Source: a bacterium (GTDB taxonomy: Bacteria; UBA8248; JACPRG01; G963555815). From it: a stretch of DNA of 64,000 bases. Of the stretch, positions 4,012 to 60,385 are shown piece by piece; positions within the stretch are counted from its first letter, which is position 1, and every line of letters starts with the position of its first letter. The notes beneath the pieces were generated by a model, which saw only the letters and a program-made list of their open reading frames with translations, made no database searches and was not told where the DNA came from. The stretch covers positions 192,001-256,000 of the forward strand of contig CBDHDG010000003.1 of the NCBI GenBank assembly GCA_965261595.1, in the 5' to 3' direction. A program made the position numbers and the translations under genes.

Positions 4012-6414
4012 TTACGAGCCGCCGTTCTTCCCGAGGGCGGCCAGAATGCGGTCGGGGGAGAAGGGCATGTCGTGAAGGCGCACGCCGATGGCGTCGCAGA
4101 TGGCGTTGGCCACTGCCGCGGCCGTCGGCACCAGGGCCGGCTCGCCGATCCCCTTGGCGCCGAAAGGACCCGTCGGGTCTTCGTCTTCCACCAGGAGCGG
4201 ATAGACCCGCGGCATGTCCAAGGTGGTGGGGATCTTGTAATCGAGCAGCGTCGGGTTCGTCACCGCGCCGTTCTCGAACACCATCTCCTCGGAAAACAGC
4301 CACCCCACGCCGATGGACACCGCCCCCTCGATCTGTCCCTCGCATCCCGCGGGGCTGATGGCCTTTCCGACGTCGTGGGCGGAGTGAAGGCTCGTGACCT
4401 CGACCAGGCCGGTCTCGGTGTCCACCTCCACTTCGGCGATCTGGGTGCCGAAGATGAATGCGGGGAGCGACATGAAATTCCACCCCTCGATTTCCATGTC
4501 TTCGGGTTGCTCGTACTTGGGCGGGTCGAAGCTCGAACCCTTTCCCAGGAGGACCCCGCCGTCCACATAGAGGCCGTACATGACCACATCGTCATAAGCA
4601 GTGCGGCGGTCCGGCGCGCTTCGGACGTAGACCTCGCCGTTGTCCATCTCGAGGTCCTGCGGATCGGCCTCGAGCATCGCGGCGGCGATTTTCAGGAAAT
4701 GCTCCTTGACCTCGGCCGCGGCGCGGATGATGGCGTTTCCGGTGTTGTAGGTGGTCCGGCTGGCGTCGGTCGCCCAGTCGAAAGGCGTGGTGAGGGTGTC
4801 CGACATGACAATCGAGACCCGCTCATAAGGGACGCTCAGCGCCTCCGCGGCAATCTGCGACAGGACGGTCCTTTGTCCGGCGCCCACCTCCGTCCCGCCC
4901 GCCAGAACCGTGACGGACCCGCCGGCCTCCATCTTGACGATGGCACTGGACGCGAAGATGGCGCTCACGTGCTGCATCGAGGCCACGCCGATGCCGGTCT
5001 TTTTTTTCGGGTCGCTGGATTTCGGAGTGGGCTTCCGGCGGTTTTCCCAGTCCCAGCCCGTGCTCTCCGCTGCCCGGCGAAGCGTTTCCTTGTAGGCGCT
5101 GTGGGGCGTGGGTTGGCCCGACAAAAGCCGCTGTCCGCTCGCAATCCCGTTTTTCATCCGGAACTCGACGGGATCGATGCCGATCTCCTTCGCCAAGTCA
5201 TCCAGTTGAGATTCCCCCGCGAAGTGGACCTGCGGGCCGCCGTACCCCCGGTATCCTCCGAACGGAAGCTTGTGGGTGTAGACGAGGCTTGCCTCCAGGC
5301 GGATGTCGGGAATTTCGTAGGGACCGCGCGCATGCGTGATGGCGGCCCCGATCACGCCGGGTCCCTGGTGGGCGTAGGCGCCGGAATCCGCGACGAAATT
5401 GATCTCTCTTGCGGTAATGCGGCCGTCCTTCTTGACGCCGGTCTTGAATTTCAGCCGGAAAGGGTGCCTCGGGGTGCCGGAGATGAATTCCTCCTCGCGG
5501 GTCAGGACAATCTTCACCGGACGGCGTGTCTGCCGGGCGAGGAGCACCGCGTGGGGCTCGACGCGGACGTCCAGCTTTCCGCCGAACCCCCCGCCGATGA
5601 ACGGCGCGACGACCCGGACCTCGCTGGGGTGAAGCCCCAGACACTCGACCAACCCCTTCCGGACCTCGGCGACCGTCTGGGTGCTTGTCCAGACGGTGAC
5701 GTGCCCTTTCGCATTCACCTGGGCCACCGCGGCGTGGGGCTCCAGGTAGCACTGGTGGTGGGTCACGGTCTCAAACCGCTGCTCCAGGATGTGATCGGCC
5801 TCATCGAACCCCTTGTCCGGATTCCCCATGAGGAGCTTGATTCGGGACGCGACGTTCCCATTCCGGATGGGTTCGTATCCCGGAACGGGCTTATACCGAT
5901 CCAGGTTCTCATGGACCAGCGGCGCGTCGGGCTTCATGGCCTCGATGGGATCGAAGACGGCGGGAAGGTCCTCGTAATCGACGTCGATCAACTCGGCGGC
6001 CTCTTCCGCCGCGTCTTCATCCCCCGCCGCGACAACCGCAATCGCCTCGCCGACGAATCGGACCTTCTCATGCGCCAGGATGGCATGGTCCCGAATGTAC
6101 GCCCCGACGGTGAGAAGGTTGCCGTCTTCATCTTTCGGGCAACCCTCCGCCGTGAGGACGGCTTTCACCCCGGAGACCTTGAGGGCCTTTGATGCGTCGA
6201 TATGGAGGATCTTGGCGTGGGGCAGTTTGGAGCGGAGGAATTTTCCGTAAAGTATGCCCGGCAGGTGCATGTCCGTCGCGAAGGTGCCGGTGCCCGTTGC
6301 CTTTTCAGCCCCGTCCTCGCGAATCACGTTTTTCCCGACCCACCTATGCTCCTTCACGTCTTCCCCCTGGACACTCATGAATTCTCTCGTTGGAAATGGA
6401 AGGCTTGCCTCCAT
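4012..6414 (-). CDS. Xanthine dehydrogenase family molybdopterin-binding (large) subunit
   Basis: LEPHAAVA, IGGGFGGK, YRGYGGPQ, EGQIEGA and GPFGAKGIGEP (catalytic Glu) motifs; 800 aa; start may be 6378. Confidence 0.93.
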   Translation of the reverse strand: MEASLPFPTREFMSVQGEDVKEHRWVGKNVIREDGAEKATGTGTFATDMHLPGILYGKFLRSKLPHAKILHIDASKALKVSGVKAVLTAEGCPKDEDGNLLTVGAYIRDHAILAHEKVRFVGEAIAVVAAGDEDAAEEAAELIDVDYEDLPAVFDPIEAMKPDAPLVHENLDRYKPVPGYEPIRNGNVASRIKLLMGNPDKGFDEADHILEQRFETVTHHQCYLEPHAAVAQVNAKGHVTVWTSTQTVAEVRKGLVECLGLHPSEVRVVAPFIGGGFGGKLDVRVEPHAVLLARQTRRPVKIVLTREEEFISGTPRHPFRLKFKTGVKKDGRITAREINFVADSGAYAHQGPGVIGAAITHARGPYEIPDIRLEASLVYTHKLPFGGYRGYGGPQVHFAGESQLDDLAKEIGIDPVEFRMKNGIASGQRLLSGQPTPHSAYKETLRRAAESTGWDWENRRKPTPKSSDPKKKTGIGVASMQHVSAIFASSAIVKMEAGGSVTVLAGGTEVGAGQRTVLSQIAAEALSVPYERVSIVMSDTLTTPFDWATDASRTTYNTGNAIIRAAAEVKEHFLKIAAAMLEADPQDLEMDNGEVYVRSAPDRRTAYDDVVMYGLYVDGGVLLGKGSSFDPPKYEQPEDMEIEGWNFMSLPAFIFGTQIAEVEVDTETGLVEVTSLHSAHDVGKAISPAGCEGQIEGAVSIGVGWLFSEEMVFENGAVTNPTLLDYKIPTTLDMPRVYPLLVEDEDPTGPFGAKGIGEPALVPTAAAVANAICDAIGVRLHDMPFSPDRILAALGKNGGS

Positions 6415-7402: not shown

Positions 7403-9598
7403 TTAGCCGGACAGTTCGACCTCAAAGAGCGCCGGCGCTCCCTTTTCGGCGATCTCGATGGCGTGCTGTCGGCCGCAGCCGGGGCAGTAGTACGCGCGAA
7501 GCTCGAGATCCTCGTGGATGGAGATCAGCGGCCCCGCCTCTTTCGGGCCGAGCCGGACGCTGCGCGCTCCCTCCTTCCAGTTGGACCCGTTGTTGGAAAG
7601 GATTTGGCCGCATTCACATACGCTCTTCAGTCCCTTCCCGTTTCGGACGATCCGGATGAACTCCCCCAACGATCCCATTTGCCGGTCTTCGGAGGTGTTT
7701 GTCATCTTTCGGGAGTGTTTGCCCTGGGTGAATTTGCCCTGTGCGAACGGCGGGCGCGCCAGCCGCTTATGCCGGAGCCGGTCCCTGCGCGCTCGCGTCG
7801 CGTTAGCCCGGACCCGGCCCGTCCGGGAGTCGAGGGCGACGCCGTAGATCCCCCGGGCCGCCTCGCGGGAGACGAGGCCGTCCCCCACGTCCTTGGCCAC
7901 CTCGTCCGGATTCCGGTCGATGGGATCTCCGTATCCGCCTCCCCCCTGCCAGGAGTTCTCGAAGACGTCCCCCCGGTGGAGCGCGACCCGGCCCGGCTTG
8001 GCCCCCAGATCGATCCACTTTCCGCTCAGTTGCTTCATGTCGGCCGGGGTTCGAGAGCGCTGGAACCATTCCTTCACGTCGGTGTCCCGAATCAGCGTGT
8101 TGACGGTGCACGACGCCGGCAGCCCGCCGTAGAGGCCTTGCGCGTTGGGGACTTTGACCCCGTGGGAGACCAGGACCCCCGAGAGGTCGTCCACGTCGTG
8201 GACCGTAAAGGCCAGTCCGCAGGATATGCCGCCCCGGTGTCTGCCGGGCCCCCCCGTGTCGCGAATCAGTTTTCGGTAAAGGTACAGGATGGGCGTTACG
8301 TTCTCCGTCGTCTCGACGTTGGCGATGTTGGGCACGGGAATGGGGTGGCTGCCCGACGCGTGGAGGCCGTCCTTGTACGAAAACGCCCCCCCGCCTCCCG
8401 CGAGGCTATCCAGGAGCATCGTCCCGAACGGCTCTCCGTACTGGTTCAGGCCGCCCAGGTTGAAGATGGAAATGGCCCCCCGGGTGTTCGCCTGGAGATG
8501 GGGACGGTGGGCGGGGTCGGCGCCCATCATCCTGGAGAGCGCCAGCGTGCAGGCCCCGTTGACCGCGTACATGACGCCGCACGTGGCCATGCTGACCGGC
8601 CCCGGAGGCCGCGCGTTGCAGATCTTCCCCTCGGGCGCTTCGATTCGCACCGGCCGCAAAAGCCCTTCCGTCCAGGGGATGTCGTAGGCGACGACGGTGA
8701 ACAGGGCGGTGCACACCGCCCCCATCAGTCCCGAGCGGGTGCAGTTGATGAAGCCGGGGGCCTGGTCCGAGGACTCGCCGAAATCGAAGATGAGCCGGTC
8801 CCGCTTTTTTGTCATCGAGAGCGCGACCTTGTACGTGCGGTCCTCGTGGCCGTCGTGGTCGAGGAAATCGACCGCCCGGTAGACGCCGTCCGGAAGGCGG
8901 CGGAGGCGGGCCCTCAGCTTCCGCTCGGAAAGGCGGATCAGGCCCTCCATGGCGGAAAGGGCCGTTTCGCGCCCGTAGCGCTCGATGAGACCGATGAGGC
9001 GCGTCTTCGCGGTGTTGTTGGCGGCCGTCATCGCCCGGAGGTCCAGCCCCAGCAGGAAGGGCAGGCGCGTCATGCTCAGGATGGTGTTCCAGACGTCCTG
9101 GCGGACCTCGCCCGCCTCGATGAGCTTCAGGGGCGGCAGGTTCATGGACTCCTGCACGCGCTCCGTCGCGCGCGGACACCAGCTCCCCACGTCCATCCCG
9201 CCCATATCGAGCTGGTGGGCGACCGTGCCGACCCAGGCCACGCGCTCGCCCTCGAAGAATACCGGCGCCGCCAGGGAGACGTCCGAGCCGTGGAGGGCGC
9301 CCTTGTAGGGGTCGTTGCAGATGAACATGTCCCCGTCGCCGATGCCGGGGCGCTCCTCGCAGTCGGAGATGATCGAGCGGATGACGTTGGCCATGGCCCC
9401 GGTCTGCCAGATCATCTGGCGGCCCAGCGTGACAATGGCGCCGTCGGAGAGATACAGGCCCGTGTTGAAATCGTTGGCCTCGGTGACGACGGGCGAGCCC
9501 GAAACCTTTTTCAGCGTGTTCGACTGCTCCCAGGTGATGGAGAGCAGCTTGTGCTTGATGACCTCGAACAGGATGGGATCGATCTTGTTCTTCGCCAC
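7403..9598 (-). CDS. Hydantoinase B/oxoprolinase family protein with C-terminal acetone carboxylase gamma-subunit-like Zn domain
   Basis: FICNDPYKGALHGSD, AHQLDMGG, DTGGPGRHRGG and GGGGYGDP motifs; C-terminal CECG...YYCPGCG. Confidence 0.9.
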   Translation of the reverse strand: MAKNKIDPILFEVIKHKLLSITWEQSNTLKKVSGSPVVTEANDFNTGLYLSDGAIVTLGRQMIWQTGAMANVIRSIISDCEERPGIGDGDMFICNDPYKGALHGSDVSLAAPVFFEGERVAWVGTVAHQLDMGGMDVGSWCPRATERVQESMNLPPLKLIEAGEVRQDVWNTILSMTRLPFLLGLDLRAMTAANNTAKTRLIGLIERYGRETALSAMEGLIRLSERKLRARLRRLPDGVYRAVDFLDHDGHEDRTYKVALSMTKKRDRLIFDFGESSDQAPGFINCTRSGLMGAVCTALFTVVAYDIPWTEGLLRPVRIEAPEGKICNARPPGPVSMATCGVMYAVNGACTLALSRMMGADPAHRPHLQANTRGAISIFNLGGLNQYGEPFGTMLLDSLAGGGGAFSYKDGLHASGSHPIPVPNIANVETTENVTPILYLYRKLIRDTGGPGRHRGGISCGLAFTVHDVDDLSGVLVSHGVKVPNAQGLYGGLPASCTVNTLIRDTDVKEWFQRSRTPADMKQLSGKWIDLGAKPGRVALHRGDVFENSWQGGGGYGDPIDRNPDEVAKDVGDGLVSREAARGIYGVALDSRTGRVRANATRARRDRLRHKRLARPPFAQGKFTQGKHSRKMTNTSEDRQMGSLGEFIRIVRNGKGLKSVCECGQILSNNGSNWKEGARSVRLGPKEAGPLISIHEDLELRAYYCPGCGRQHAIEIAEKGAPALFEVELSG

Positions 9599-9615
9599 GC
9601 GCCGCGTCCTTCCTC

Positions 9616-11802
9616 TCAGGGTTCAATTCGGACGTTGAGATACGGGTCGACGGCCGCCCGCTGGCCGGGCTCGATGAGGACCGTCGTCCCCGCGTACTCC
9701 AAAACGGCCGGCCCCTGGATTTCCCGGCCGGGAGAAAGGTCCGCCCCCCGGTGGAACTTTGTCGGCAGCGTTCCGCCGGCCTCGTAGAAATAAACGTCTC
9801 GCGTCGCGTGCGGCTTCGCGCGTTTTCCCGCGGACTTCCGGCGGGGCCGGAGCCTCGGCTTCACCTTCCGGCCGATGGCCTCGATCCGAAACGTCGTCAC
9901 CTCCAGGCCGGCTTCGCGGTATTGGGATCCCCGGCCGTAGCGCGCCTCGTACTCCGCCTCGAACCGTTCGACGAGCAGATCGACCCGGGAGCGGGAGAAG
10001 CGTCCGTCCGGGGCCGGAACGGGGACCTCGTGCGTCTGGCGGCGGTAGCGCATGTGGACGTAGCGCTGGAACGCCATGTCCCGCTTCGCCACGCCGTTTC
10101 TCGCCAGGGCCGTTCGGCCTTGCTCCTCCAGCGTCTTGAATACGCTCTCGATCTCACGCGCTTCCAGGTGGTCGGAGGCGGTGCCGGAGAGGGGGGGCGT
10201 CCGCATGAGTCGGGAGAGAACAAAAGAGTATTGGATGTCCGAGGCCACCGCGCCGAAGGCCGAGTGCGAGCCCGCGGTGAGCGGGATGACGATCCGCGAC
10301 AGGCGCAGCTCCTTTCCAAAAGAGGCGCAGTGCATCGGCCCCGCCCCCCCGTAGGCGTACAACACGAAGTCCTGCGGATCATATCCCCGCTCCAGGGTGA
10401 CGCGGCGGATCAAATCGGCCATGCGCTGATCGATGATTTGGCGGATCCCCGCCGCCGCCTCGAGGACCGGGATGTCCAGGGGCTTCGCCACCCGCGCCTC
10501 GATGGCCCGGCGCGCCCGTTCCGGGTCCAGGTGAATCCGGCCCCCCAGGAAAAAGGCGGGATCGATGATCCCGAGGACCACGTCGGCGTCGGTGACCGTG
10601 GGCTCCGTCCCGCCCCGGCCGTAGCAGACGGGTCCGGGCGCCGCGCCCGCGCTGTCGGGGCCGACCGTGAGATTGCCGTCCTCCACGCGGGCGATGCTTC
10701 CGCCGCCGGCCCCGATGGTCTCGATGGCCATCATCGGGACGAGGGTGTGATATTTATCGTGGACGGCCCCTTCCGCCTTCAAGGGCCGGCCGCCGACGAT
10801 CAGGCCCACATCAAAGCTTGTTCCGCCCATGTCGGCCGTGATGATGTCATCGTGACCCAGGGTTTCCCCCAGCGTCCGGCAGCCGATGACCCCGCCGGCG
10901 GGACCGGACATGAGGAGGGTGAGGGCGTTGTCGGAGGCTTCCCCGGCCGAGATCACCCCGCCGGCGGAGTGCAGAATCAGGGGGGAGGTCCCGAGGCCGG
11001 CCTCTTTCAATCTCGTCTCCAGCCCCCGGAAATAGTCCCGGACGATGGGCCCCAGGTATCCGTTGAGGACCGTCGATGCCGTCCGCTCATACTCGCCGAG
11101 GATGGGAAAGTGGTCGCTGGATGTCGTGACGTAGACCCCGCGGGCTTCCGCCAGGCCCCGGACCGCCCGCTCGTGGACCGGGTTGAGAAATGACCAGAGG
11201 AAGCAGACGGCGATGGCGTCCGCGCCCGCTTCGATGAGCCCCGCGACCGCCTCCTCGGCTTCATTCCGGTTCAGCGCGACGACGACCTCGCCCTTGTAAT
11301 CGACGCGCTCGCTCACCTCGCGGATGAGGGCCGGCGGGACGAGAGGGTCCGGGTAGGCCCGCAGCGTGTAATCGGCCAGCTCCTCTTCGGTCAGCCCCGC
11401 CGTCATGCCCAGTGAGCGTTGGATGAGGAGGGTGTCCTTGAAGCCGCGGGTGGTGATGAGACCCAGGCGGGCGCCCCGGCGTTGAAGGAGGGCGTTGGTC
11501 GCAATCGTGGTGCCGTGACCGAAATAGACCGTCTTTTCCAGAAAATTCCGCGCGCTTTCCCCGTGGTCCGCCGCCGCCAGCGCGATCCCTTCCAGGACCC
11601 CGCCGAGCAGGTCATCGAGTGTGGAGGGGGTCTTGTAGGTGGAGACCCGGCCCCGTTCGTCGAGGAGGCAAATGTCTGTGAAGGTGCCTCCGATGTCTAC
11701 GCCCAGCAGGAGGCTTCCGGCCTTTCCGGCGCGGCCTTTCCCGGGGCGGCGTCCGGCGCCGTTGTCACGGATTCGGGTTTTCGAGGACCTTCCCTGTCTC
11801 AT
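9616..11802 (-). CDS. Hydantoinase A/oxoprolinase family ATP-binding subunit
   Basis: GVDIGGTFTD, HGTTIATNA, SGPAGG, DMGGTSFDV, IGAGGGSIA, GPDSAGAAPGPVCYG and YGGAGPMH motifs. Confidence 0.93.
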   Translation of the reverse strand: MRQGRSSKTRIRDNGAGRRPGKGRAGKAGSLLLGVDIGGTFTDICLLDERGRVSTYKTPSTLDDLLGGVLEGIALAAADHGESARNFLEKTVYFGHGTTIATNALLQRRGARLGLITTRGFKDTLLIQRSLGMTAGLTEEELADYTLRAYPDPLVPPALIREVSERVDYKGEVVVALNRNEAEEAVAGLIEAGADAIAVCFLWSFLNPVHERAVRGLAEARGVYVTTSSDHFPILGEYERTASTVLNGYLGPIVRDYFRGLETRLKEAGLGTSPLILHSAGGVISAGEASDNALTLLMSGPAGGVIGCRTLGETLGHDDIITADMGGTSFDVGLIVGGRPLKAEGAVHDKYHTLVPMMAIETIGAGGGSIARVEDGNLTVGPDSAGAAPGPVCYGRGGTEPTVTDADVVLGIIDPAFFLGGRIHLDPERARRAIEARVAKPLDIPVLEAAAGIRQIIDQRMADLIRRVTLERGYDPQDFVLYAYGGAGPMHCASFGKELRLSRIVIPLTAGSHSAFGAVASDIQYSFVLSRLMRTPPLSGTASDHLEAREIESVFKTLEEQGRTALARNGVAKRDMAFQRYVHMRYRRQTHEVPVPAPDGRFSRSRVDLLVERFEAEYEARYGRGSQYREAGLEVTTFRIEAIGRKVKPRLRPRRKSAGKRAKPHATRDVYFYEAGGTLPTKFHRGADLSPGREIQGPAVLEYAGTTVLIEPGQRAAVDPYLNVRIEP

Positions 11803-51411: not shown

Positions 51412-53079
51412 CCCGCATTTCCCATATGGATCATAAGTTTTGTCGGACCGAATGCCATTTTCTCGTGTAAGATCAAGGTGTTGGCCTCTCCCTGCCATCA
51501 TCTTGCGAGGGGACCCAATGGGTGAAGCGAAGAAGGGGGCTTTGAAGATCCGTTTTGACCGTCGGCTGAGGCTTGAGTTTCACGGAACCAGAATCACTTC
51601 GGATGCAGGATTGCTGGCCTGCCGGGAGCTGGATGATGCGCTGGGTTTGACGGTGAGAGCGCCAGTGCAATTGCAAGAGATCCGTCATGGCCGGAACATC
51701 CAGCATGAGTTGGCGCCGCTATTGCGCCAGTCGGTCTATAGCCGCTTGGCAGGGTATGAAGACACCAACGATGCCGAGCGGTTGGCCCAGGACCCCGCGA
51801 TGCAAGCCGTGGTCGGCCGCCGAGCGCTTGAGAAGCAGGCGGCGGGCGCCAACACCCTGAGCCGGTTCGAGACCGAGGTTCTCACCAAGGAGGAGAATCT
51901 CAAGGGGCCGGAGCGAGCTGAACCGGGAGTGGGTGGACCGGGCCATGGCACACTCACCCCATCAGCGAATCATCCTGGACATGGACAGCTCGGAAAGCCC
52001 CGTCCATGGGGAGCAGGAAGGTACGGCCTACAACGGCCACTTTCGTTGCACCTGTTATCACCCTCTTTTTTGCTTTAACCAGTTCGGGGACTGCGAAGGG
52101 GCGATGTTGCGCCCCGGCAACGTGCACAGCGCCGATGGCTGGCGCGAGTTGCTTTCGCCCATCGCGGCCCGGTATGAGCGGGCGGGTGTTCGCCGTTACT
52201 TCCGAGCCGATGCCGCCTTTGCGCGCCCGGAGGTCTATGAGTGCCTGGAAGCGCACAGCTTCCTTTACGCCATCCGCCTTCCCGCCAACGACGTGGTGCA
52301 GCGAGAGATCGACTTCCTCCTCACCCGCCCGGTCGGTCGCCCGCCCAAGAGACCCATCATCTTCTATTACGACTTCCGGTATCAGGCTGGAAGCTGGGAC
52401 CGTTCCCGGCGGGTCGTGGCGAAGGTGGAATGGCACTCAGGCGAACTCTTCCCTCGCGTCGGATTCATTGTCACGAACCTGACGGCTCGACCCGAGGGGG
52501 TCGTGCACTTCTACAACCAGCGAGGCACAGCCGAGCAATGGATCAAGGAAGGCAAGTACGCCATGAACTGGACACGCCTTTCCTGTCACCGGTTCGTGTG
52601 CAACCAGGTGCGGCTCCTTCTCTTCGTCCTGGCGTACAACCTGGGCAATTTCCTGCGCAGGCTAGCCTTGCCCAGGGGGCTCAAGCACTGGTCGCTGCGA
52701 AGCCTCCAGGTCAAGCTCATCAAAATGGGCGGGAGGATTGTGCGGCACGCCCGGCAGATCATCTTTCAATTGGCCGAAGTAGCGGTATCCAGGGAAGAGT
52801 TCGCCATCATCCTGGACCGAATCAACCGATTACGGCCGGTGCCGGTCTAACCTTGTGCAGAGGGTTCCCGGCAGCATGAGGTGATTGGTTAACGGGTTGA
52901 ACCGCGAATAAAGGGGACCGAAGGGCGAGGGTCCGCCTTTTGGGGCAGTCGATGGCCGTCAGCACCTTGTTGCGGAGGGTTGGAAGGCTCTTGACAAACC
53001 CATCGGAAGGGGATCAACTGGTTTTCATCGGGAAAGGGGACCGGAAACCACCCAAGCAAGTTGATATGGGAAATTCCGG
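51412..53079 (+). mobile_element. IS1380-family insertion sequence
   Basis: 16-bp imperfect IRs CCCGCATTTCCCATAT / CCGGAATTTCCCATAT; 5-bp target duplication TTATA (51407-51411, 53080-53084). Confidence 0.9.
51518..52850 (+). pseudogene. IS1380 transposase, frameshifted near 51910
   Basis: MGEAKKG...ITSDAGLL...GYEDTNDA in one frame; ELNREWVDR...LDMDSS...YHPL...RADAAF...YNQRGTAEQWIKEGK in the next. Confidence 0.85.
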
Positions 53080-53154: not shown

Positions 53155-54249
53155 ATGAAAACGGAATACTCAGCGGTCATGGAGGGCAAGGAGCGGATGA
53201 GCCTCCGGGAGTTCCCGTTGCCCGAAATCGGCGAGGACGACGGCCTCATGCGGGTGGAGATGTCGGGGGTGTGCGGGTCGGATTACGCTTGGTTTCATGA
53301 AAAGGTGAAGCTCCCGGAGTACCCCGTCATCCTGGGCCATGAGATCCTGGGCCGCCTCGAGAAGCTCGGCAAAAAGGTGGCGGACCGTCTCGGGCTGGCC
53401 GAGGGGGACCGGGTCGTGGTCGAGTCCCGCATCGGCTGCGATGGGTGCAGATACTGCAAGGCGGGACACTATGTCTTTTGCGAAAAAGAGCTCGGCTACG
53501 GCACGACGGTCTCTTGCGCCCGGCCCCCGCACCTTTGGGGGGCTTACGGGGAGTGCCTGTACATTGCCCCGGGGACCCGGGTGCACAAGATTGCCGAGTC
53601 CGTTCCGGCCGAGGCCGCCGTCTTGACGTGCGGCGTCCTGGCCAACGGGATCCGGTGGGTCCATCAAAAGGGCGGCGTCGGGATTGGGGACGTGGTGATT
53701 GTCGAGGGCGTCGGCCAGCAGGGGCTGGCGGCGATCATCGCCTCCAAGGAGGCCGGCGCCCACCTGGTCATCGCGACGGGCGTCTCAGGGGACGAGAAAC
53801 GCTTTGCGCTGGCCCGCGAGTTCGGGGCGGACCACACCATCGACATCGAGGCGCCCGGCGCGGTCGAGCGCATTCTGGACTTGACCGAGGGTTTGGGCGC
53901 GGACGTCGTCGTCGACGCGACATCGAGCCCCGCCGCCTTGGAGACCGCCATCGACCTGGTGCGCAAGCGGGGAACCGTCATCAGCGCCGGCCTCAAGGGG
54001 ACGCTGGTCCGGACGCCCATCAACGTGGACAAGGTCGCCCTCAACGAGATTCGGATTCAAGGGGTGTTCACCCACGACGCGGAATCGGTGGTCCCGACCA
54101 TCAGACTGCTGGAGTCCGGGAAGTATCCGGTGGAGAAGATGGTGACCCACCGGTTCAAATTGTCCGAGGCCGAAAAGGCCGTTCAGTGCGTCGGGCGGCA
54201 GCTGGAAGGGGAGGACCCCATCAAGGTCGTCATCCTGCCGGAGGTGTAG
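53155..54249 (+). CDS. Zinc-dependent alcohol dehydrogenase (MDR family)
   Basis: GVCGSD, GHE, CDGCRYC..G..VFC and GVGQQG motifs. Confidence 0.93.
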   Translation: MKTEYSAVMEGKERMSLREFPLPEIGEDDGLMRVEMSGVCGSDYAWFHEKVKLPEYPVILGHEILGRLEKLGKKVADRLGLAEGDRVVVESRIGCDGCRYCKAGHYVFCEKELGYGTTVSCARPPHLWGAYGECLYIAPGTRVHKIAESVPAEAAVLTCGVLANGIRWVHQKGGVGIGDVVIVEGVGQQGLAAIIASKEAGAHLVIATGVSGDEKRFALAREFGADHTIDIEAPGAVERILDLTEGLGADVVVDATSSPAALETAIDLVRKRGTVISAGLKGTLVRTPINVDKVALNEIRIQGVFTHDAESVVPTIRLLESGKYPVEKMVTHRFKLSEAEKAVQCVGRQLEGEDPIKVVILPEV

Positions 54250-54496
54250 CGGGAGGCGGGCAAGACGCCCGTTCTCACAAGGGGCGGCGCTGGCGGCTTC
54301 TCTGCCGGCGCCGCATTTTTAAAATGAAGCGCGCGTCCATTATTCCTGAGGCTGGTCCCCGTCCCGGCCCGTCACACGCCCATAGGGAACAGAATGCTGG
54401 AACTTGGTCAGCACCCGTGCGTTGGTAAATTATTGAACGCTAACCGGTTCAATCGACCTACACCGTTCGGTCGTTTAAGTTGCTGAGAAATGCGGC

Positions 54497-55846
54497 CTAG
54501 GGTCTCCCTGGTGCAAAATCCTCCAGTGTTCTCAGATCCGGAAGCGACAACGGCTCCTTATACAAATGTTGCTCTTGCCAGAGACCGCTCTCTCGGATCC
54601 TGGTTTTTGGCGAAAAGCTGCCCAACCAGCCTGGAGAGGGACAGCAAGAGCGACAGAGGGAAACAGTCGCAATGCCGCGCCGCTCGAATTCAAGGCAAAC
54701 CTCGCGATTTGGGACGGCGATGGTGCAAAACGAGAGATTCCGTGTGATATGTTCCGATACAGAATTTTCGACCTGCCCCTGTCTTTCCTTGTCGACAAAC
54801 GTCCCATAGCGCTCACGGTTTTTCCGTGAGGTGAGATCGAAGTCCCACGTTTTGAGGAATGGGTCGCCGTCCCTGTTGAGGAGCGCACGTACCAGGTTTT
54901 TGCGAAAGATACTACGATCCTTGTTCGGCGTTACGTGCTCCTTGAGACGTGCCCTCAGGTTGCCATCGCCAGTGTGACTGCCGATCCGCACGATACGCTC
55001 ACCAACATGGCCCGGTTCGGCGGCCTCAAACAGAAAATAGAGGCCATTGTCCGGAATCCCGTAATCAGGCGGTGAAAAACTGTGTTGTTTGAGCCGGTGC
55101 AAGATCTCGTGGAGGCGTGAGCATAACTCTTCTCTTTCAACCAATTGGCGCTGCGACGGATGGAGAAAGCTCCACGGGTTTTCAAACGCCCGCTCTAGCT
55201 CTTCCACGTTGCTCATCACGCGAAAGCGGCGCTTTGCATCGGGCTGATCAAACGGGTCGGTGTTTGCCGCTACCAGTGGCAGAACAGGTGGCGCCACACC
55301 GGTCGCCAGGTTCAACAGCGCCTCGGCGGCCTCGTCGGGCAGGTGAGCGGCCAGTTCCAGAATGGAGTCTTCGTTGGCCTTCCGCACATCTGCCAGCCAC
55401 TCGACAGGCAGCCCGCAGTCGAGCAGTTCATCATCCGACAGATGTTCATAGAGGGGTGGCTTGGGGAGATCGGGCTGTTCGACTTCCACGTACTTCGGGA
55501 CGGGGATTTCCTGGACCCGCTCGCGAATTTCCACCAACTGCGCCGCGCCGGTTTTCGGATGGGTTTCCAGCTTGCGCTGCTCAGCCCAGTCATAGGCCCG
55601 GTCGTGGTGATCCACATAGCACAGGAGTAGGCTCGTTTTGGTCTTGTGCACGATGATCCGCAGGTCGCGGCTGACTCGCACCGAACAGAAGTTTTTGTCC
55701 TTGGCCCTGTCGAGCTTGTGGAATTTCTTGCCCGGGGTGTCGCGCTTTATCTGAAGGTCGAAGGCTGTGGTCTTGACGGCTTTTTGCTCGTCGCCGGTCA
55801 ATCTCGTGAGGCTGTCAGTAAAGGTGTCGGCGATACGAAAGTCCAT
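54497..55846 (-). CDS. Chimeric protein: RelE-like N-terminal region of UvrD-type helicases fused to a GIY-YIG-like nuclease domain
   Basis: MDFRIADTFTDSL...KTTAFDLQ...FHKLDRAKDKNF.SVRVSRDLRIIVH...YVDHHD.AY.WA...FLHPSQRQLVER, then GLYFLFE...IVRIGSH...NLRARLKEH...SIFRKN; no Walker A motif. Confidence 0.7.
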   Translation of the reverse strand: MDFRIADTFTDSLTRLTGDEQKAVKTTAFDLQIKRDTPGKKFHKLDRAKDKNFCSVRVSRDLRIIVHKTKTSLLLCYVDHHDRAYDWAEQRKLETHPKTGAAQLVEIRERVQEIPVPKYVEVEQPDLPKPPLYEHLSDDELLDCGLPVEWLADVRKANEDSILELAAHLPDEAAEALLNLATGVAPPVLPLVAANTDPFDQPDAKRRFRVMSNVEELERAFENPWSFLHPSQRQLVEREELCSRLHEILHRLKQHSFSPPDYGIPDNGLYFLFEAAEPGHVGERIVRIGSHTGDGNLRARLKEHVTPNKDRSIFRKNLVRALLNRDGDPFLKTWDFDLTSRKNRERYGTFVDKERQGQVENSVSEHITRNLSFCTIAVPNREVCLEFERRGIATVSLCRSCCPSPGWLGSFSPKTRIRESGLWQEQHLYKEPLSLPDLRTLEDFAPGRP

Positions 55847-56460
55847 TACTTGTGGGGCCAAAAGTAATGCACCGGTGCCAGCCAATATTGCGATGGATCC
55901 CGTTCGCTCTCGTGGCGGATAGAGCTGAGATCATTCACCCACCTTTTTTCGAACCCCTCTCGTGCAGCGACCGCCGAGATGATGGCATCTCGCTCGTGTT
56001 CCTGTTTGTTCTTCATCTCTACCTTTACTGAGAACTGCTTGAAAAAAGTATCGCCTCTCTTCAATTTCAACGCGGCCATTACAGCTTTGGGATGAGTCTC
56101 CGTGACGCCGACATCCGGAAAGAGTCGTCGAATCCGGTCCACGAACATCATGCCTTGGACGAGTGCCGCGCCACGCAATGAGTTCACCGCTTACACCTGT
56201 CCACCGGAAAAACCGTACTCCCCTCTTAACCACTGATCCGCCATACGGGCGCTGGAACGCCCAGACGACCACCACAAAGGGGCATCCACTCCAATACCGG
56301 CAGGTTGCGCTTTCACGAGGTTCGTGACTTTATCGACGGCCTCATCCGCACAGTCCACACAACACGTCTGCGCCGACCCGTCCGATTTGAGAATAGCCAA
56401 TCCAAAACTCCCCTTGCCGCCCGGATCCGCACCGATCCAGATGTTGTTGCGCGACCTCAT
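55846..56460 (-). pseudogene. DUF429-like (RNase H-like) predicted nuclease with an internal TAA stop
   Basis: WIGADPGG, GVDAPLWW, R.AD..LR, then GGQV*AVNSLRGA in the same frame (stop 56191-56193), TETHPK, HERDAIISA. Confidence 0.75.
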
Positions 56461-56732
56461 ACCTTGAACACCTCGAACCTCTGTCAAATCGATAGTTCAT
56501 CATTGAGAAAAGCCCTTGCGCAGGCGTAGTGCCAGTTTGTGTGCACGGGCTTGTAACGAACCGTTCGCCAGCCAGTTTGTACGGGCGCCTCAGATGACGC
56601 GTAGAAGACAATCTTTTCGGCAGGAAGCTGCTTGGTTAGTCGGTAAAACAACGGGAGATAGTCCTTTCCCCCGCTCTAGGGTTTTGTTGGACACTCGATT
56701 GATCCATGATTCATGGAGAAAGGGGTGTCGCG

Positions 56733-57119
56733 ATGAACGAACAAAAGCAAGAGGGGGCTTTGGCGGAGGGCGCCCGCAGGGCGAACGGAGCCAAGGCCCC
56801 AGGGCATCGCAGTGAGCGGGGTCGGTTCTCCTGCCAGCGCAAGCGGGAGGCGGTCCTGCGTCTTTTGCGGGGCGAGAGCCTGGAGACGCTCTGCCGCGAG
56901 TTGGGCACGACAGCGGCTCGGCTTTCCGCCTGGCGCGAGGCGTTCCTTCGCGGGGGCGAGGCGGCGCTCAAAGCCCGCCCGGCGGATGAGCGGGACGAGG
57001 AGAACGCCCGGCTCAAGGCCAAGGTGGGCGAACTCACGATGGAGGGCGAGGTCCTGCGGGAGAAGATCGACCGCCTGGAGGCCGGCCGCCCTTTAGCCGG
57101 CAGGAGGTGGAGGCGATGA
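56733..57119 (+). CDS. IS3-family transposase OrfA
   Basis: Same protein sequence as 47516..47902. Confidence 0.88.
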   Translation: MNEQKQEGALAEGARRANGAKAPGHRSERGRFSCQRKREAVLRLLRGESLETLCRELGTTAARLSAWREAFLRGGEAALKARPADERDEENARLKAKVGELTMEGEVLREKIDRLEAGRPLAGRRWRR

Positions 57120-58024
57120 GTCAGGCCCGCTTCACCTCCACGGGCAGAGCCTACGGCCTGAAGCGGGTGTGCGCCCTTTGGGGCTTGGCGCGCTCCACGG
57201 TCTACGCGCAACGGCGGCGAGAGGCGGTCCCCGTTCATGAACGCCCCACGCCCAATAAGCGCGGCCCTGTGGGCCCGTGCACCGATGCGGAACTCCTCGG
57301 CCACATCCGGCAGGTCCTGGAGGACTCTCCCTTCCATGGCGAGGGCTACCGCAAGGTGTGGGCGAGGCTGCGCTTCGCGGGCATCCGCACCAGCAAGGAG
57401 CGGGTGCGTCGCCTGATGCGGGAGGCGGGGCTTCAGGCCCCCCACCGGGTGGGCAAACCCCGAGGTCCCAAGGCCCACAACGGGACCATCCGCACCGAGC
57501 GGCCCGACCGAATGTGGGGCACGGACATGACGACGACGGTGACCACCGAGGAGGGGATGGCCTCGGTGTTCGTGGCGGTGGATCACTGTTCGGTGGACTG
57601 CGTGGGGATCCATGCGGCCAAGAGCGGCAACCGCTTCGAGGCCCTGGAGCCGATCCGGCAGGGGGTCGCCGAGCGCTTCGCCGGCTTGGAGGCGGACGTC
57701 GCCGAGAGGCTTAAAGTTCGTCACGACCACGGCCCCGCCTATCTGTCCGATGACTTTCAGCGGGAGATCGCCTACCTGGGCATGACCAGTTCGCCCAGCT
57801 TCGTGCGGGCGCCCGAGGGAAATGGCTACTGTGAGTGGTTTATCCGCATCTTGAAGGAGAATCTCCTGTGGGTGCGCTCTTTCGCCACCGTAGAGGAACT
57901 GCGGTGGGCGCTGCTTGAGTTCAAGAACCTGTACAACCATCATTGGATTCTCGAGGGCTACGGCTACCGAACGCCGGCCCAGGCAAGGCAGGAAAAACTC
58001 GCTCAAGTTGCGGAGGCCGCATGA
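57116..58024 (+). CDS. IS3-family transposase OrfB
   Basis: Same as copy 1 except G>R in DVAE(G/R)LKV. Confidence 0.9.
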   Translation: MSQARFTSTGRAYGLKRVCALWGLARSTVYAQRRREAVPVHERPTPNKRGPVGPCTDAELLGHIRQVLEDSPFHGEGYRKVWARLRFAGIRTSKERVRRLMREAGLQAPHRVGKPRGPKAHNGTIRTERPDRMWGTDMTTTVTTEEGMASVFVAVDHCSVDCVGIHAAKSGNRFEALEPIRQGVAERFAGLEADVAERLKVRHDHGPAYLSDDFQREIAYLGMTSSPSFVRAPEGNGYCEWFIRILKENLLWVRSFATVEELRWALLEFKNLYNHHWILEGYGYRTPAQARQEKLAQVAEAA

Positions 58025-58685
58025 GGTCGAATACCCTCACCCGAGTGTCCAATAACCCAGGGGCGGTCCACCTTGCCACCAAAAAAGTAGATCGGCCCCT
58101 CATCATCAGGGCTCAAATGGCAGAAATCCTCATACGGATCGCCTTTCCCGCGGCGCTTATAGGCATCGGCATTACCAGAAAAGGTGATGTCATAGATGGG
58201 AAGGGGGTAGTTGGCACGTACGAGCCCCCAGCCTGCAGACAAAATGAGAACATTTTCAAGACCAAACTTGGAGACCAGTTCCCGATAGATCGGAGGTCTG
58301 TAGAGTCGGTAAGCTTCGAGCAGTTTGAAAGGGTTGTCGTGTCGGGTGTCATCATAATTATCGAGTTGCTCGCGCCACGACGTGCCCGGTCGGTCTGAAG
58401 GAGCATCGTCATCGGGGTGCGCCCATTCCCAGTCGCTACTTGCAGGGGTTTTTTCGGGGTGCGCGACAAACTTCACGCGCTTGCCAGCCTTCGTCTGGAA
58501 AAAGCCCGCTGAGGGCACCTTCGACCCAGCGCACTGAATCACAACTTTCATGATCGATTATCTCACAAATTCAGGGACAGAAGTTCTGCAACGGATTTAC
58601 CCGACAACTACTTTTTCGGTTAGTATACAAGGCGGGGAAATGGTGAGATCAAAAACTTCCTTGCAAACTCCGGCTTAAGACGCGG

Positions 58686-58746
58686 TGGGCCACTCTTGGT
58701 TTCTTGGACATTCGGGCGAGGGTAATCGACCTCATGCGGCCTCCGC
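58686..58746 (-). mobile_element. Diverged relic of the right end of the same IS3-type element, inverted
   Basis: TGGGCCACTCTTGGTTTCTTGGACATTCGGGCGAGGGTAATCGACCTCATGCGGCCTCCGC aligns with the reverse complement of 58010-58070. Confidence 0.75.
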
Positions 58747-58987
58747 GCTGCACAGGCTGACAAGCTGCCGGTGGCATCCATATTTAAAGACTCCCAGTTT
58801 AAAGAGGCGTCCAATATCCCCGAAGCTTTGTCAGCGAATGGATTCATCGGAACGGCGGTGCGCGTCCGCTCCAATGGATGTGTAACGGGGGGGATTGCGC
58901 TTGAGCAAGCCAGGGTTTAAAAAGGTGCGCTCGTTTCTCCCTTTCTGTTGACGTTCAATCAGGCTTGAATCACAAAAGGATTCGAAC

Positions 58988-60385
58988 ATGAAGGATTTGA
59001 GAACCTTCATCGAGGACATGGAAGAGCGCCACCCGGGTGAGATCCTGCGGGTCCAGCGCCCGGTGGACGCCCGGTTCGAGATCTCTTCCGTTATCAGACG
59101 CCTGCAGGAGGAGCGGAAATTCCCGGCGGTCTTCTTTGAAAGCGTCCGGGGAAGCGACCACGGGGTGATCACAAACGTTCACGCCACCCGGGAACGGATG
59201 GTGTACGGCATGGGCGTTTCGGATCGCAAGGCGATGCTCCGCGCCTGGAGCGAGCGGCTCGATAACCCCATCGCGCCGATCGACGTGGAGACCGGACCCG
59301 TCAAGGAGGTGATTCACTTGGGCGAGGCGTGCGACCTCCGGCGGCTCCCCATCGTGACCCACGCCGAGCAGGATTCGGGCGCTTTCATCACCGCCGGCGT
59401 CCTGATCATCCGGAATCCCGACACGGGCGAGCCGAACATCGGAATCTATCGCCACATGGTGAAGGGGCCGAACCGTCTGGGCTGCTTTATGAATGAGGGC
59501 ACGCACCTGTTCCATCTCCTGAAGAAGGCCGAGGCGAAGGGACAGGATCTGGAGTGCGTCATCTTCATCGGCCACCATCCCCTGGGCATCCTGGCCTCCC
59601 AGGTCCGGGGGGCGCTCCAGAACGAGCTGGCCACGATGGGCGGGGTCCTGGGAGAGGCGATCGAGATCGCCCCGGCCGAGACGGTGGACGTGCCCGTGCC
59701 GGCCCGGGCGGAGATCGCCATCGAGGGCAAGATCCTCGCGGGCGTCCGGGAGGAGGAGGGGCCCTTCGGCGAGTACACCTTCTTATATGGGGAAGCCCGG
59801 AATTCCCCGGTCATCGAGGTGTCGGCCATCACGCACCGCCGCGACGCCATCTTCTACGACGTGCACTCCCCGTATATCGACCATGTGAACTGCTCCGTCC
59901 TGGCGCAGGACGCTTATGTGTTCAATAAGATTCGGGCCTCGGTGCATAACATCCTGGACGTGTTTCACCCCTCGGAGGGCATCGTCCATACGGCGATGAT
60001 CCAGATCCGCAAAGAGACGGAAGGGCAGGGCAAGGCGGCGGGTCTGGCCGCGCTGGCCTCGGTGTACCTGCTCAAGATCGCCATCATTGTGGATGACGAC
60101 GTGGATCCGACCAATCTCGGGGAGGTCCTTTGGGCCATCACGGCCAGGACCCGGCCGGATCGGGACTTCGACTTCATCAAGGACGTGCATTGCGGCACGC
60201 TGGACGCCATGGGCGTTTCGGGAGAGGGTTGGCCGCAAAGGGGCGGCCTCAACACCAAGGTGATCATCGACGCGACGAAGCCCATCGATGTCCCGCTGCC
60301 CGACCGCTGCGACCCGCCCGAGGCGATGTGGCGCGCGATGGACCTCGCCGAGTATTTCCCGGACGGGAATTTCGGGTCGGGCTGA
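58988..60385 (+). CDS. UbiD family (prFMN-dependent) decarboxylase
   Basis: DLRTFI, NIGIYR, EIAIEG, EEGPFGEYT, IIVDDDVDP..L.EVLWA and KVIIDATKP motifs. Confidence 0.92.
   Translation: MKDLRTFIEDMEERHPGEILRVQRPVDARFEISSVIRRLQEERKFPAVFFESVRGSDHGVITNVHATRERMVYGMGVSDRKAMLRAWSERLDNPIAPIDVETGPVKEVIHLGEACDLRRLPIVTHAEQDSGAFITAGVLIIRNPDTGEPNIGIYRHMVKGPNRLGCFMNEGTHLFHLLKKAEAKGQDLECVIFIGHHPLGILASQVRGALQNELATMGGVLGEAIEIAPAETVDVPVPARAEIAIEGKILAGVREEEGPFGEYTFLYGEARNSPVIEVSAITHRRDAIFYDVHSPYIDHVNCSVLAQDAYVFNKIRASVHNILDVFHPSEGIVHTAMIQIRKETEGQGKAAGLAALASVYLLKIAIIVDDDVDPTNLGEVLWAITARTRPDRDFDFIKDVHCGTLDAMGVSGEGWPQRGGLNTKVIIDATKPIDVPLPDRCDPPEAMWRAMDLAEYFPDGNFGSG

Follow-up and report, generated by a model that had tools for sequence, protein, structure and literature searches.

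The window analysed here is a 64,000-nucleotide (nt) stretch of bacterial DNA from the GTDB lineage UBA8248 (positions 192,001 to 256,000 of contig CBDHDG010000003.1, assembly GCA_965261595.1), and all positions below are numbered from its first letter. On its reverse strand lies an open reading frame (ORF) in which the beginning of a UvrD-type helicase gene is joined in frame to an almost complete gene of the nuclease-like GIY_YIG_3 family. The chimeric ORF and its parts are as follows.

54497..55846, reverse strand: chimeric ORF P0001, 449 amino acids from its ATG (from the ORF list and its translation).
55130..55846, reverse strand: helicase-derived part, codons 1-239, with 85% identity to residues 1-243 of the protein P0003.
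55124..55135, reverse strand: fusion junction (…V-E-R-E / E-L-C…), in frame, read from the sequence.
54500..55129, reverse strand: GIY_YIG_3 (PF26468) or PDC-M57B nuclease-like part, codons 240-449, assigned with PADLOC, homologues, and fold.

The boundary between codons 239 and 240 falls at 55129/55130, and the join is clean, with zero foreign letters between the two parts. An alternative TTG start at 55885 would lengthen the ORF by 13 residues. The source genome is a metagenome-style assembly (96.7% complete, 5.6% contamination), in which the chimera is present as a single copy and neither half has a second copy. In 17 sequencing runs from 6 studies, the fraction of the sampled words from 54400-56600 that was present reached 94% or more. 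The contigs of 4 runs from 4 other studies were compared, leaving out the study in which 100% of the words were found, and in each of the 4 runs one contig spanned 54389-56662 without a break or an indel. Furthermore, the 90%-identity protein cluster comprised seven distinct variants on seven contig sets, and the junction was identical in all of them. To the extent that contigs can settle this, the junction was not introduced by the assembler, and the chimeric gene is genuine. The RNA runs X18-X20 contained 6-8% of the sampled words of 54400-56600. There was no match to the whole chimera in NCBIfam and none to positions 53900-59100 in Rfam at an expectation (E) value of ≤ 0.1, and a scan for promoters and terminators gave counts no higher than those in shuffled sequences.

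The helicase-derived part consists of a RelE/YoeB-like fold (approximately residues 1-95), a linker and helical region, and the segment FLHPSQRQLV (55139-55168), which we take, from the general pattern of superfamily 1 helicases, to be the Q motif of UvrD. A word-indexed search gave at least 8000 scored matches, the 120 best of which were examined. Apart from the near-identical P0002, each of these matches extends over 53% of the query, and most of them are proteins of approximately 690 amino acids with UvrD-helicase Pfam domains. The closest relative, P0003, is a 690-amino-acid UvrD-type helicase; its alignment with the chimera stops at 'LVERE', and its own sequence goes on past that point to the Walker A segment GSAGTGKT at residue 252. 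A pattern search for Walker A ([AG]xxxxGK[ST]) found no occurrence anywhere in the 449-amino-acid protein, and the Pfam scan of the chimera gave no match to a UvrD domain. Because the Pfam UvrD-helicase domain begins at residue 233 in one relative, the break lies inside motor domain 1A and not at a linker. Judged from the sequence, the stub retains the Q motif of domain 1A but stops short of Walker A, and no motor activity can remain.

The identity of residues 1-239 to helicase N-termini was 57-85%, and the best value within the bacterium's own phylum (51 genomes) was 67%. When 25 helicase N-termini were aligned, four residues (EKWT) conserved among the helicases proved to be deleted from the chimera just before the Q motif, and the window copy also differed at several near-invariant positions. 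An AlphaFold model of the helicase part, built from the helicase alignment, had a mean predicted local distance difference test (pLDDT) score of 78.8, with values >90 over approximately residues 1-100 and of 49-71 over the last ~50 residues. Foldseek matched this part to nine PDB chains at E ≤ 0.001, all of them RelE, YoeB, YafQ, or similar members of toxin families, and the best match of the first ~90-95 residues had an E value of 1.4e-4 and a target-normalised template modelling (TM) score of 0.75 over 84 columns. The Pfam family HigB-like_toxin (RelE family) scored 19.4 bits on residues 36-81, against a cut-off of 27 (E = 0.0015). The RelE-like assignment holds at the level of the predicted fold. 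No antitoxin gene was seen among the neighbours, which were covered by a Pfam scan only and not by a search aimed at antitoxins.

The C-terminal part matches the PADLOC profile PDC-M57B (PDLC04713) over residues 240-443 (E = 2.7e-72; profile positions 3-207 of 211) and corresponds to a native M57B gene minus only its first ~4-5 codons. A search with this half alone returned 1886 proteins, with a best identity of 63%, and the listed homologues were mostly free-standing proteins of ~200-240 amino acids. The label PF26468, which the Atlas names GIY_YIG_3, was present on all 120 listed homologues and on the 99% identical P0002; the family is missing from the Pfam version that we scanned, and hmmscan therefore gave no family for this half. 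In an alignment of 22 members (alignment A1), all 52 invariant columns were retained by the window protein, and the segments GLYFLFE, RIVRIG, and RARLKEH occupied family-invariant columns. The motifs of the family are NG(L/I)Y and R(I/V)VR(I/V)G, accompanied by conserved R, H, N, and E residues, which may correspond to the catalytic positions in the pattern of the superfamily.

The profile of alignment A1 gave no matches to PDB sequences at E ≤ 10. The structural model of the C-terminal half had a pLDDT of 93.8; a Foldseek search of it against the PDB returned nothing at E ≤ 0.001, and the top entries were the GIY-YIG domains of UvrC and R.Eco29kI (E ~0.8). An exhaustive VIA-align search reached Z ≥ 2 for 16 of 48,161 chains, and eight of the ten best (Z 6.5 to 2.5) are titled as GIY-YIG nucleases, namely T4 EndoII (Z 6.5), the N-terminal domain of UvrC (Z 5.8), I-TevI (Z 5.7), R.Eco29kI (Z 5.4), PD-T4-3 (Z 4.8), two entries of Slx1 (Z 3.2 and 2.6), and Hpy188I (Z 2.5). 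The remaining two, the N-terminal domain of a plant Grx and At-HIGLE, presumably also have the GIY-YIG fold. The model thus indicates a GIY-YIG core fold in the C-terminal half, for which the Z values are middling and the consistency of the matched family carries the weight. The two halves were folded separately. An initial annotation of this DNA, made from its letters alone, had described a helicase-associated RelE-like N-terminus, a GIY-YIG-like C-terminus with the motifs GLYFLFE, RIG, and LRARL.EH, the lack of a Walker A and motor, and a junction at about 55100-55150, and each of these readings agrees with the results given above, the quoted motifs lying at family-invariant columns.

No other protein with this fusion was found by HMMER among 1.84 billion representative proteins. 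The best match scored 345 bits and was limited to residues 9-239; a much higher score would be expected of any protein that matched the two halves together. Two matches that crossed residue 240 were inspected and rejected, one being a frameshifted helicase fragment and the other a spurious extension of the alignment. When residues 240-449 were searched among proteins of 246-786 amino acids, 236 proteins were obtained. Among the 120 best of these 236 longer PF26468 proteins, there was no helicase family except in the fusion's own cluster (P0002), and the extra domains were DUF6884 (by far the commonest), MazG-like, HTH_3 with PF15731, and PF26345, together with PF03747, NDK, PF18731, and PF24698 (examples are P0140, P0243, P0284, P0285, and P0252). 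These varied fusions suggest that GIY_YIG_3 may act as an effector module behind varied sensors. The chimera is lineage-restricted, and its domain architecture is new, with component families that are known.

The region upstream of the chimera contains the following features.

55846..56460, reverse strand: DUF429 pseudogene, with its ATG at 56460 and an in-frame TAA at 56191-56193; its stop codon overlaps the ATG of the chimera by one base.
56457..56471, reverse strand: methyltransferase remnant, V-F-K-V-stop (the last 5 codons), overlapping the DUF429 ATG.
56484..56662, reverse strand: 3' piece of geneX (DUF6884-like, M57A-like), cut from its 5' part by an insertion sequence (IS).
56663..58070, forward strand: IS3-family element of 1408 bp, with orfA (56706-57119), orfB (57107-58024), the Pfam domains HTH_Tnp_1, HTH_21, and rve, and terminal inverted repeats.
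58003..58551, reverse strand: 5' part of geneX, a 182-amino-acid ORF that runs into the IS end and contains CxxxK and LSAxxG motifs.

The Pfam DUF429 domain was detected on the first half of the pseudogene (E = 6e-4). The position of its TAA is occupied by Q (Gln) in the homologue at locus L135, and the TAA had no variant in any of the 4 runs from other studies. The 16 nt around the DUF429 ATG are identical to those of L135, and the other frame there is the end of a Type III methyltransferase; 12 nt separate the TGA of geneX from this identical stretch. The IS3 element is present in this genome and absent at the site in all 4 other runs, in whose contigs 56662 is followed directly by 58071; the 4 bases that are ambiguous at the join fit a target duplication.

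The IS-free allele of geneX is a single 219-amino-acid ORF. Its 5' part gave weak DpdC matches and a DUF6884 match at E = 0.13, and its CxxxK and LSAxxG motifs are those given for DUF6884 in the Pfam paper (PMC11701544). Homologues of geneX with 45% identity are located directly upstream of M57B at the loci L052 and L031, and their own matches are also sub-threshold (DUF6884, E = 5e-6 and 9e-5; PDC-M57A, E = 8e-5 and 8e-4). At both loci, M57B starts 0-16 nt past the geneX homologue and encodes 4-5 residues ahead of an E-x-C that matches the E-L-C of the window (residues 240-242). These homologues (L052:1011-1661 and L031:5426-6115) and geneX itself (window 58551..56484 without the IS) make up a second, ~219-amino-acid type of DUF6884-like partner, which would escape automated PDC-M57 calls because its scores stay under the thresholds of Pfam and PADLOC.

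To characterise the usual neighbours of each parent gene, 80 genome loci with M57B (63 with at least 2.1 kb of upstream flank) and 80 metagenome loci with the helicase (63 with at least 700 nt downstream) were used. No helicase was found within 7 kb of M57B in any of the first 80 loci. A clustered same-strand ORF was located within 100 nt upstream of M57B in 55 of them, and 16 further M57B ORFs were at least 300 amino acids long and are probably fused forms. All six of the upstream ORFs that were scanned were PDC-M57A (E = 1e-56 to 1e-63) and also matched Pfam DUF6884. Conversely, neither M57B nor geneX was found within 6 kb of the helicase in any of the other 80 loci. The helicase gene of the relatives G005 and G030 is preceded by genes for a ResIII protein and an N6_N4 methyltransferase, and a DUF429 gene stands directly upstream of the helicase in two of the 80 loci, L135 and L105, with identities to the window DUF429 of 73% and 61%, respectively. 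At L135, a 928-amino-acid Type III methyltransferase (1462 bits) precedes the DUF429 gene, and its stop codon overlaps the DUF429 ATG. The bacterium's own genome contained no donor operon and no PF21818 match; the closest Type III methyltransferase had 31% identity over part of its length, and no Res or Mod gene exceeded that identity at the locus or elsewhere in the genome.

We consider it likely that the chimera is a lineage-restricted gene produced by illegitimate rearrangement, an accident in a decaying defence islet and no designed effector. The ancestral locus would have carried a PDC-M57-type pair, in which geneX was followed within a few bases by the GIY_YIG_3 gene M57B, and a foreign fragment of ~1.35 kb would have entered between the geneX stop codon and approximately codon 5 of M57B. 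The donor would have been an operon of the type Type III Res - Mod - DUF429 - RelE-like/UvrD helicase, and the captured piece would have comprised the last 5 Mod codons, all of DUF429, and helicase codons 1-239. The inserted DNA would extend from 55130 to somewhere in 56472-56483, and ~20-30 nt of the target would have been replaced. With the right-hand break in frame, M57B would have come to be read from the start codon of the helicase, behind a 239-residue stub. If the protein is made, the GIY-YIG domain is most likely its active part and the RelE-like stub a passenger. A two-step route, in which the whole cassette was inserted and a later deletion followed, costs an extra event and finds no support in the 160 loci.

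The initial annotation had offered the choice between a new dual effector and a recent in-frame deletion that fused two neighbouring genes. The in-frame fusion of two genes stands, and the accidental branch is the favoured one, with an origin rather in the capture of a fragment between geneX and M57B than in a simple deletion between neighbours, which the 80+80 loci never show side by side. The description of the gene as the sole intact survivor of the operon holds approximately for this genome, in which DUF429 carries a TAA and the next gene upstream is cut by the IS. Two findings that would speak against the reading had also been named there, namely a lack of the fusion in other genomes together with a misassembly at the junction, and a C-terminal half that is not GIY-YIG-like in a profile search. 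Neither applies, the junction being borne out by contigs of other studies and the C-terminal half having a GIY-YIG profile label as well as the fold.

Other signs of decay come from variation within the gene. The window copy differs from those of other samples at five bases, four of which are non-synonymous and one synonymous, giving Q201, K205, S258, and V319 in place of H, Q, P, and G, respectively. Two of these four amino-acid changes (P258S and G319V, or P19S and G80V in the numbering of the GIY_YIG_3 domain) are at near-invariant positions of the family, and V319 also occurs in run X5. The 90% cluster contains seven protein variants, four intact and three truncated; for two of the truncated ones, a 5-nt deletion and a 13-nt insertion would account better for the protein sequences than single-base homopolymer errors would. 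With small numbers and strains that are almost clonal, these data amount to relaxed constraint at most and are no proof of death. The locus as a whole nevertheless appears to be decaying, considering the dead DUF429, the IS-cut geneX, the private changes, and the truncated variants, and loss of function of the chimera would be in line with this.

Several observations weigh against an accidental origin followed by decay. Neither a sister locus with an uninterrupted geneX-M57B pair nor a donor was recovered, and we infer both the order of events and the insertion in a single step. The ORF is intact and free of indels in the window and in the contigs of 4 runs from 4 other studies, as it is in the four intact protein variants, and some of the truncated variants, which are known from proteins alone, may reflect errors of assembly. 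Polymorphism amounts to 5 nucleotides, a tiny count. The C-terminal half retains every family-invariant residue, and both break points spare the flanking coding sequence, suggesting selection for continued expression of M57B. Moreover, natural PF26468 proteins often have other N-terminal domains, and such an add-on need not inactivate the nuclease. Since the GIY_YIG_3 domain is complete and the module occurs naturally behind many N-terminal domains, the C-terminal half may still provide a PDC-M57-like system with its nuclease; the mechanism of such a system would couple a YaaA/DpdC-like binder of unusual or damaged bases to a cut made by the GIY-YIG domain.

These points lead to the alternative of a selected effector, in which the RelE-like domain was recruited as a sensor or second nuclease for a GIY-YIG DNase, giving a variant PDC-M57 with a DUF6884-like partner. 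We regard this as unlikely. In its favour, at least 5 samples, drawn from at least 5 studies, contain the ORF in intact form, all invariant GIY_YIG_3 residues are retained, and a RelE-like fold is confidently modelled over residues 1-100 (pLDDT >90); PF26468 is, in addition, promiscuous, being fused to DUF6884, MazG-like, HTH/MqsA-like, NDK, PF03747, and other domains, and the break points preserve geneX and M57B. However, a second example is lacking among the 1.84 billion representatives, and the break splits helicase domain 1A instead of coinciding with a domain boundary; the final ~50 stub residues are modelled poorly (pLDDT 49-71). The stub has also lost the conserved 4-residue motif and changed at several near-invariant helicase positions, the co-captured DUF429 is dead, truncated variants make up 3/7 of the total, and 4/5 of the private changes are non-synonymous. 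It is likewise doubtful that the gene is a functional neo-effector observed shortly after it arose, in which a GIY_YIG_3 nuclease came under the RelE-like sensor of a helicase associated with Type III restriction-modification (R-M) and was kept through the in-frame join beside its DUF6884 partner; if so, nature would have exchanged domains between two defence systems that are not related to each other.

A simple in-frame deletion, by which a DUF429-helicase cassette upstream of M57B lost helicase codons 240-690 and the M57B start, is likewise unlikely. It presupposes that the cassette, severed precisely 5 codons short of the Mod terminus, had earlier been placed between geneX and M57B, a pair normally no more than ~16 nt apart; the gene families are adjacent in none of the 80+80 loci, and no full-length helicase remains in the genome. 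Such a deletion would yield the clean, in-frame fusion without foreign letters at the junction that is seen here, and DUF429-helicase cassettes do exist (L135 and L105), in addition to which defence genes cluster in islets, making a chance adjacency possible. The remaining explanation, a chimeric join made by the assembler, draws on the metagenome-style assembly with its 5.6% contamination and on the IS copies and dispersed repeats nearby, and it is refuted as far as the contigs go, with a negligible residual probability, because unbroken, indel-free contigs cross the junction in the 4 runs of 4 other studies, in addition to the ≥94% of sampled words in 17 runs and the six further protein variants with the identical junction on other contigs.

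Among known systems, the closest to the chimera is PDC-M57, a PADLOC candidate composed of A (DUF6884, PF21818) and B (GIY_YIG_3, PF26468). The C-terminal 210 residues of the chimera represent a near full-length B, and the locus shares with PDC-M57 a same-strand upstream DUF6884-like gene with CxxxK and LSAxxG. In contrast to PDC-M57, the B of the chimera lacks its own start and has a 239-residue helicase stub. Furthermore, whereas A is within 100 nt of B in 55/80 loci, the A-like gene here ends 1.35 kb upstream, is IS-interrupted in this genome, and is of a divergent 219-amino-acid type that falls below the Pfam cut-off. A literature search found no paper on 'PDC-M57' or 'PF26468'.

The ~690-amino-acid RelE-like/UvrD helicases that occur beside Type III R-M genes share with the chimera the N-terminus and its RelE/YoeB-like fold, and the upstream DUF429 and Mod-tail remnant of the window match the L135-type operon of these helicases. 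Unlike them, the chimera lacks everything from Walker A on, as well as the four residues before the Q motif. A literature search on fused RelE, UvrD, and type III restriction returned nothing relevant by title or abstract. The type II toxins RelE, YoeB, YafQ, and ParE have their fold in common with residues ~1-95 of the chimera, with a weak HigB-like Pfam match, but the domain in the chimera is below the Pfam cut-off and is part of a larger protein.

With GIY-YIG nucleases of solved structure (T4 EndoII, the UvrC N-terminal domain, I-TevI, and R.Eco29kI), the chimera shares a predicted core fold over 85-106 aligned residues, and its family has GIY-like and YIG-like motifs and the conserved R, H, N, and E. 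The family differs from these nucleases in giving no sequence-level match to PDB chains or to the Pfam families scanned and in having an extra Cys-rich C-terminal region (CxxC…W.G..SP), which is outside the structural matches.

Taken alone, the chimera is of minor importance: a single fusion, specific to one lineage and probably being lost. As a candidate for gene birth by fragment capture, it is of interest in that both parents, both break points, and polymorphic neighbours can be read from the sequence in a defence islet. It also points to a little-studied pair, DUF6884 (a YaaA/DpdC-like putative base-flipping DNA binder) and GIY_YIG_3, which is widespread in bacteria and archaea. If the chimera is active, it would be a natural test of the tolerance of GIY_YIG_3 for arbitrary N-terminal sensors. 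For automated annotation, it calls for caution, as such ORFs are named 'RelE toxin' or 'helicase' on the basis of the stub.

Broken copies were also observed among the relatives. At L135:3957-4569, DUF429 matches in two frames with an apparent frameshift near 4370, and this gene may also be decaying or may contain a sequencing error. A second copy of the helicase in G005 (L093, G005:C1:279000-295000, at ~7500-9700) is broken, with a TAG in the N-terminal match and the core on a separate ORF; it adjoins a resolvase gene and lies behind ResIII and methyltransferase genes.

Several mobile or repeated sequences surround the chimera. In the 4 other runs, the word depth of the IS3 element was 50-400x that of the flanks, and the element is thus very abundant there and probably active. 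A solo 63-nt IS3 right end, inverted and 86% complementary to 58010-58072, is located at 58684-58746, upstream of geneX, and appears to be what is left of a further insertion at the edge of the islet. The stop codon of the chimera is immediately followed by a ~140-nt dispersed repeat (54350-54491), which resembles a miniature inverted-repeat transposable element (MITE) or a repetitive extragenic palindromic (REP) sequence and has no Rfam match; it has 22 matches in its own genome including itself (71-97% identity, several of them partial), and its depth spikes in other samples, where several sequence variants of it also occur. At 51440-52850, a DDE_Tnp_1_4 (IS1380-like) transposase is encoded as two overlapping ORFs of 212 and 305 amino acids, reflecting either a frameshifted IS copy or programmed frameshifting. 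The islet itself (54500-58999) is located between a zinc-dehydrogenase-like gene (53155-54249) and a long forward-strand gene (58988-60385), and its G+C content outside the IS is 0.51-0.59, compared with ~0.59-0.70 in the flanking genes, which fits horizontally acquired DNA.

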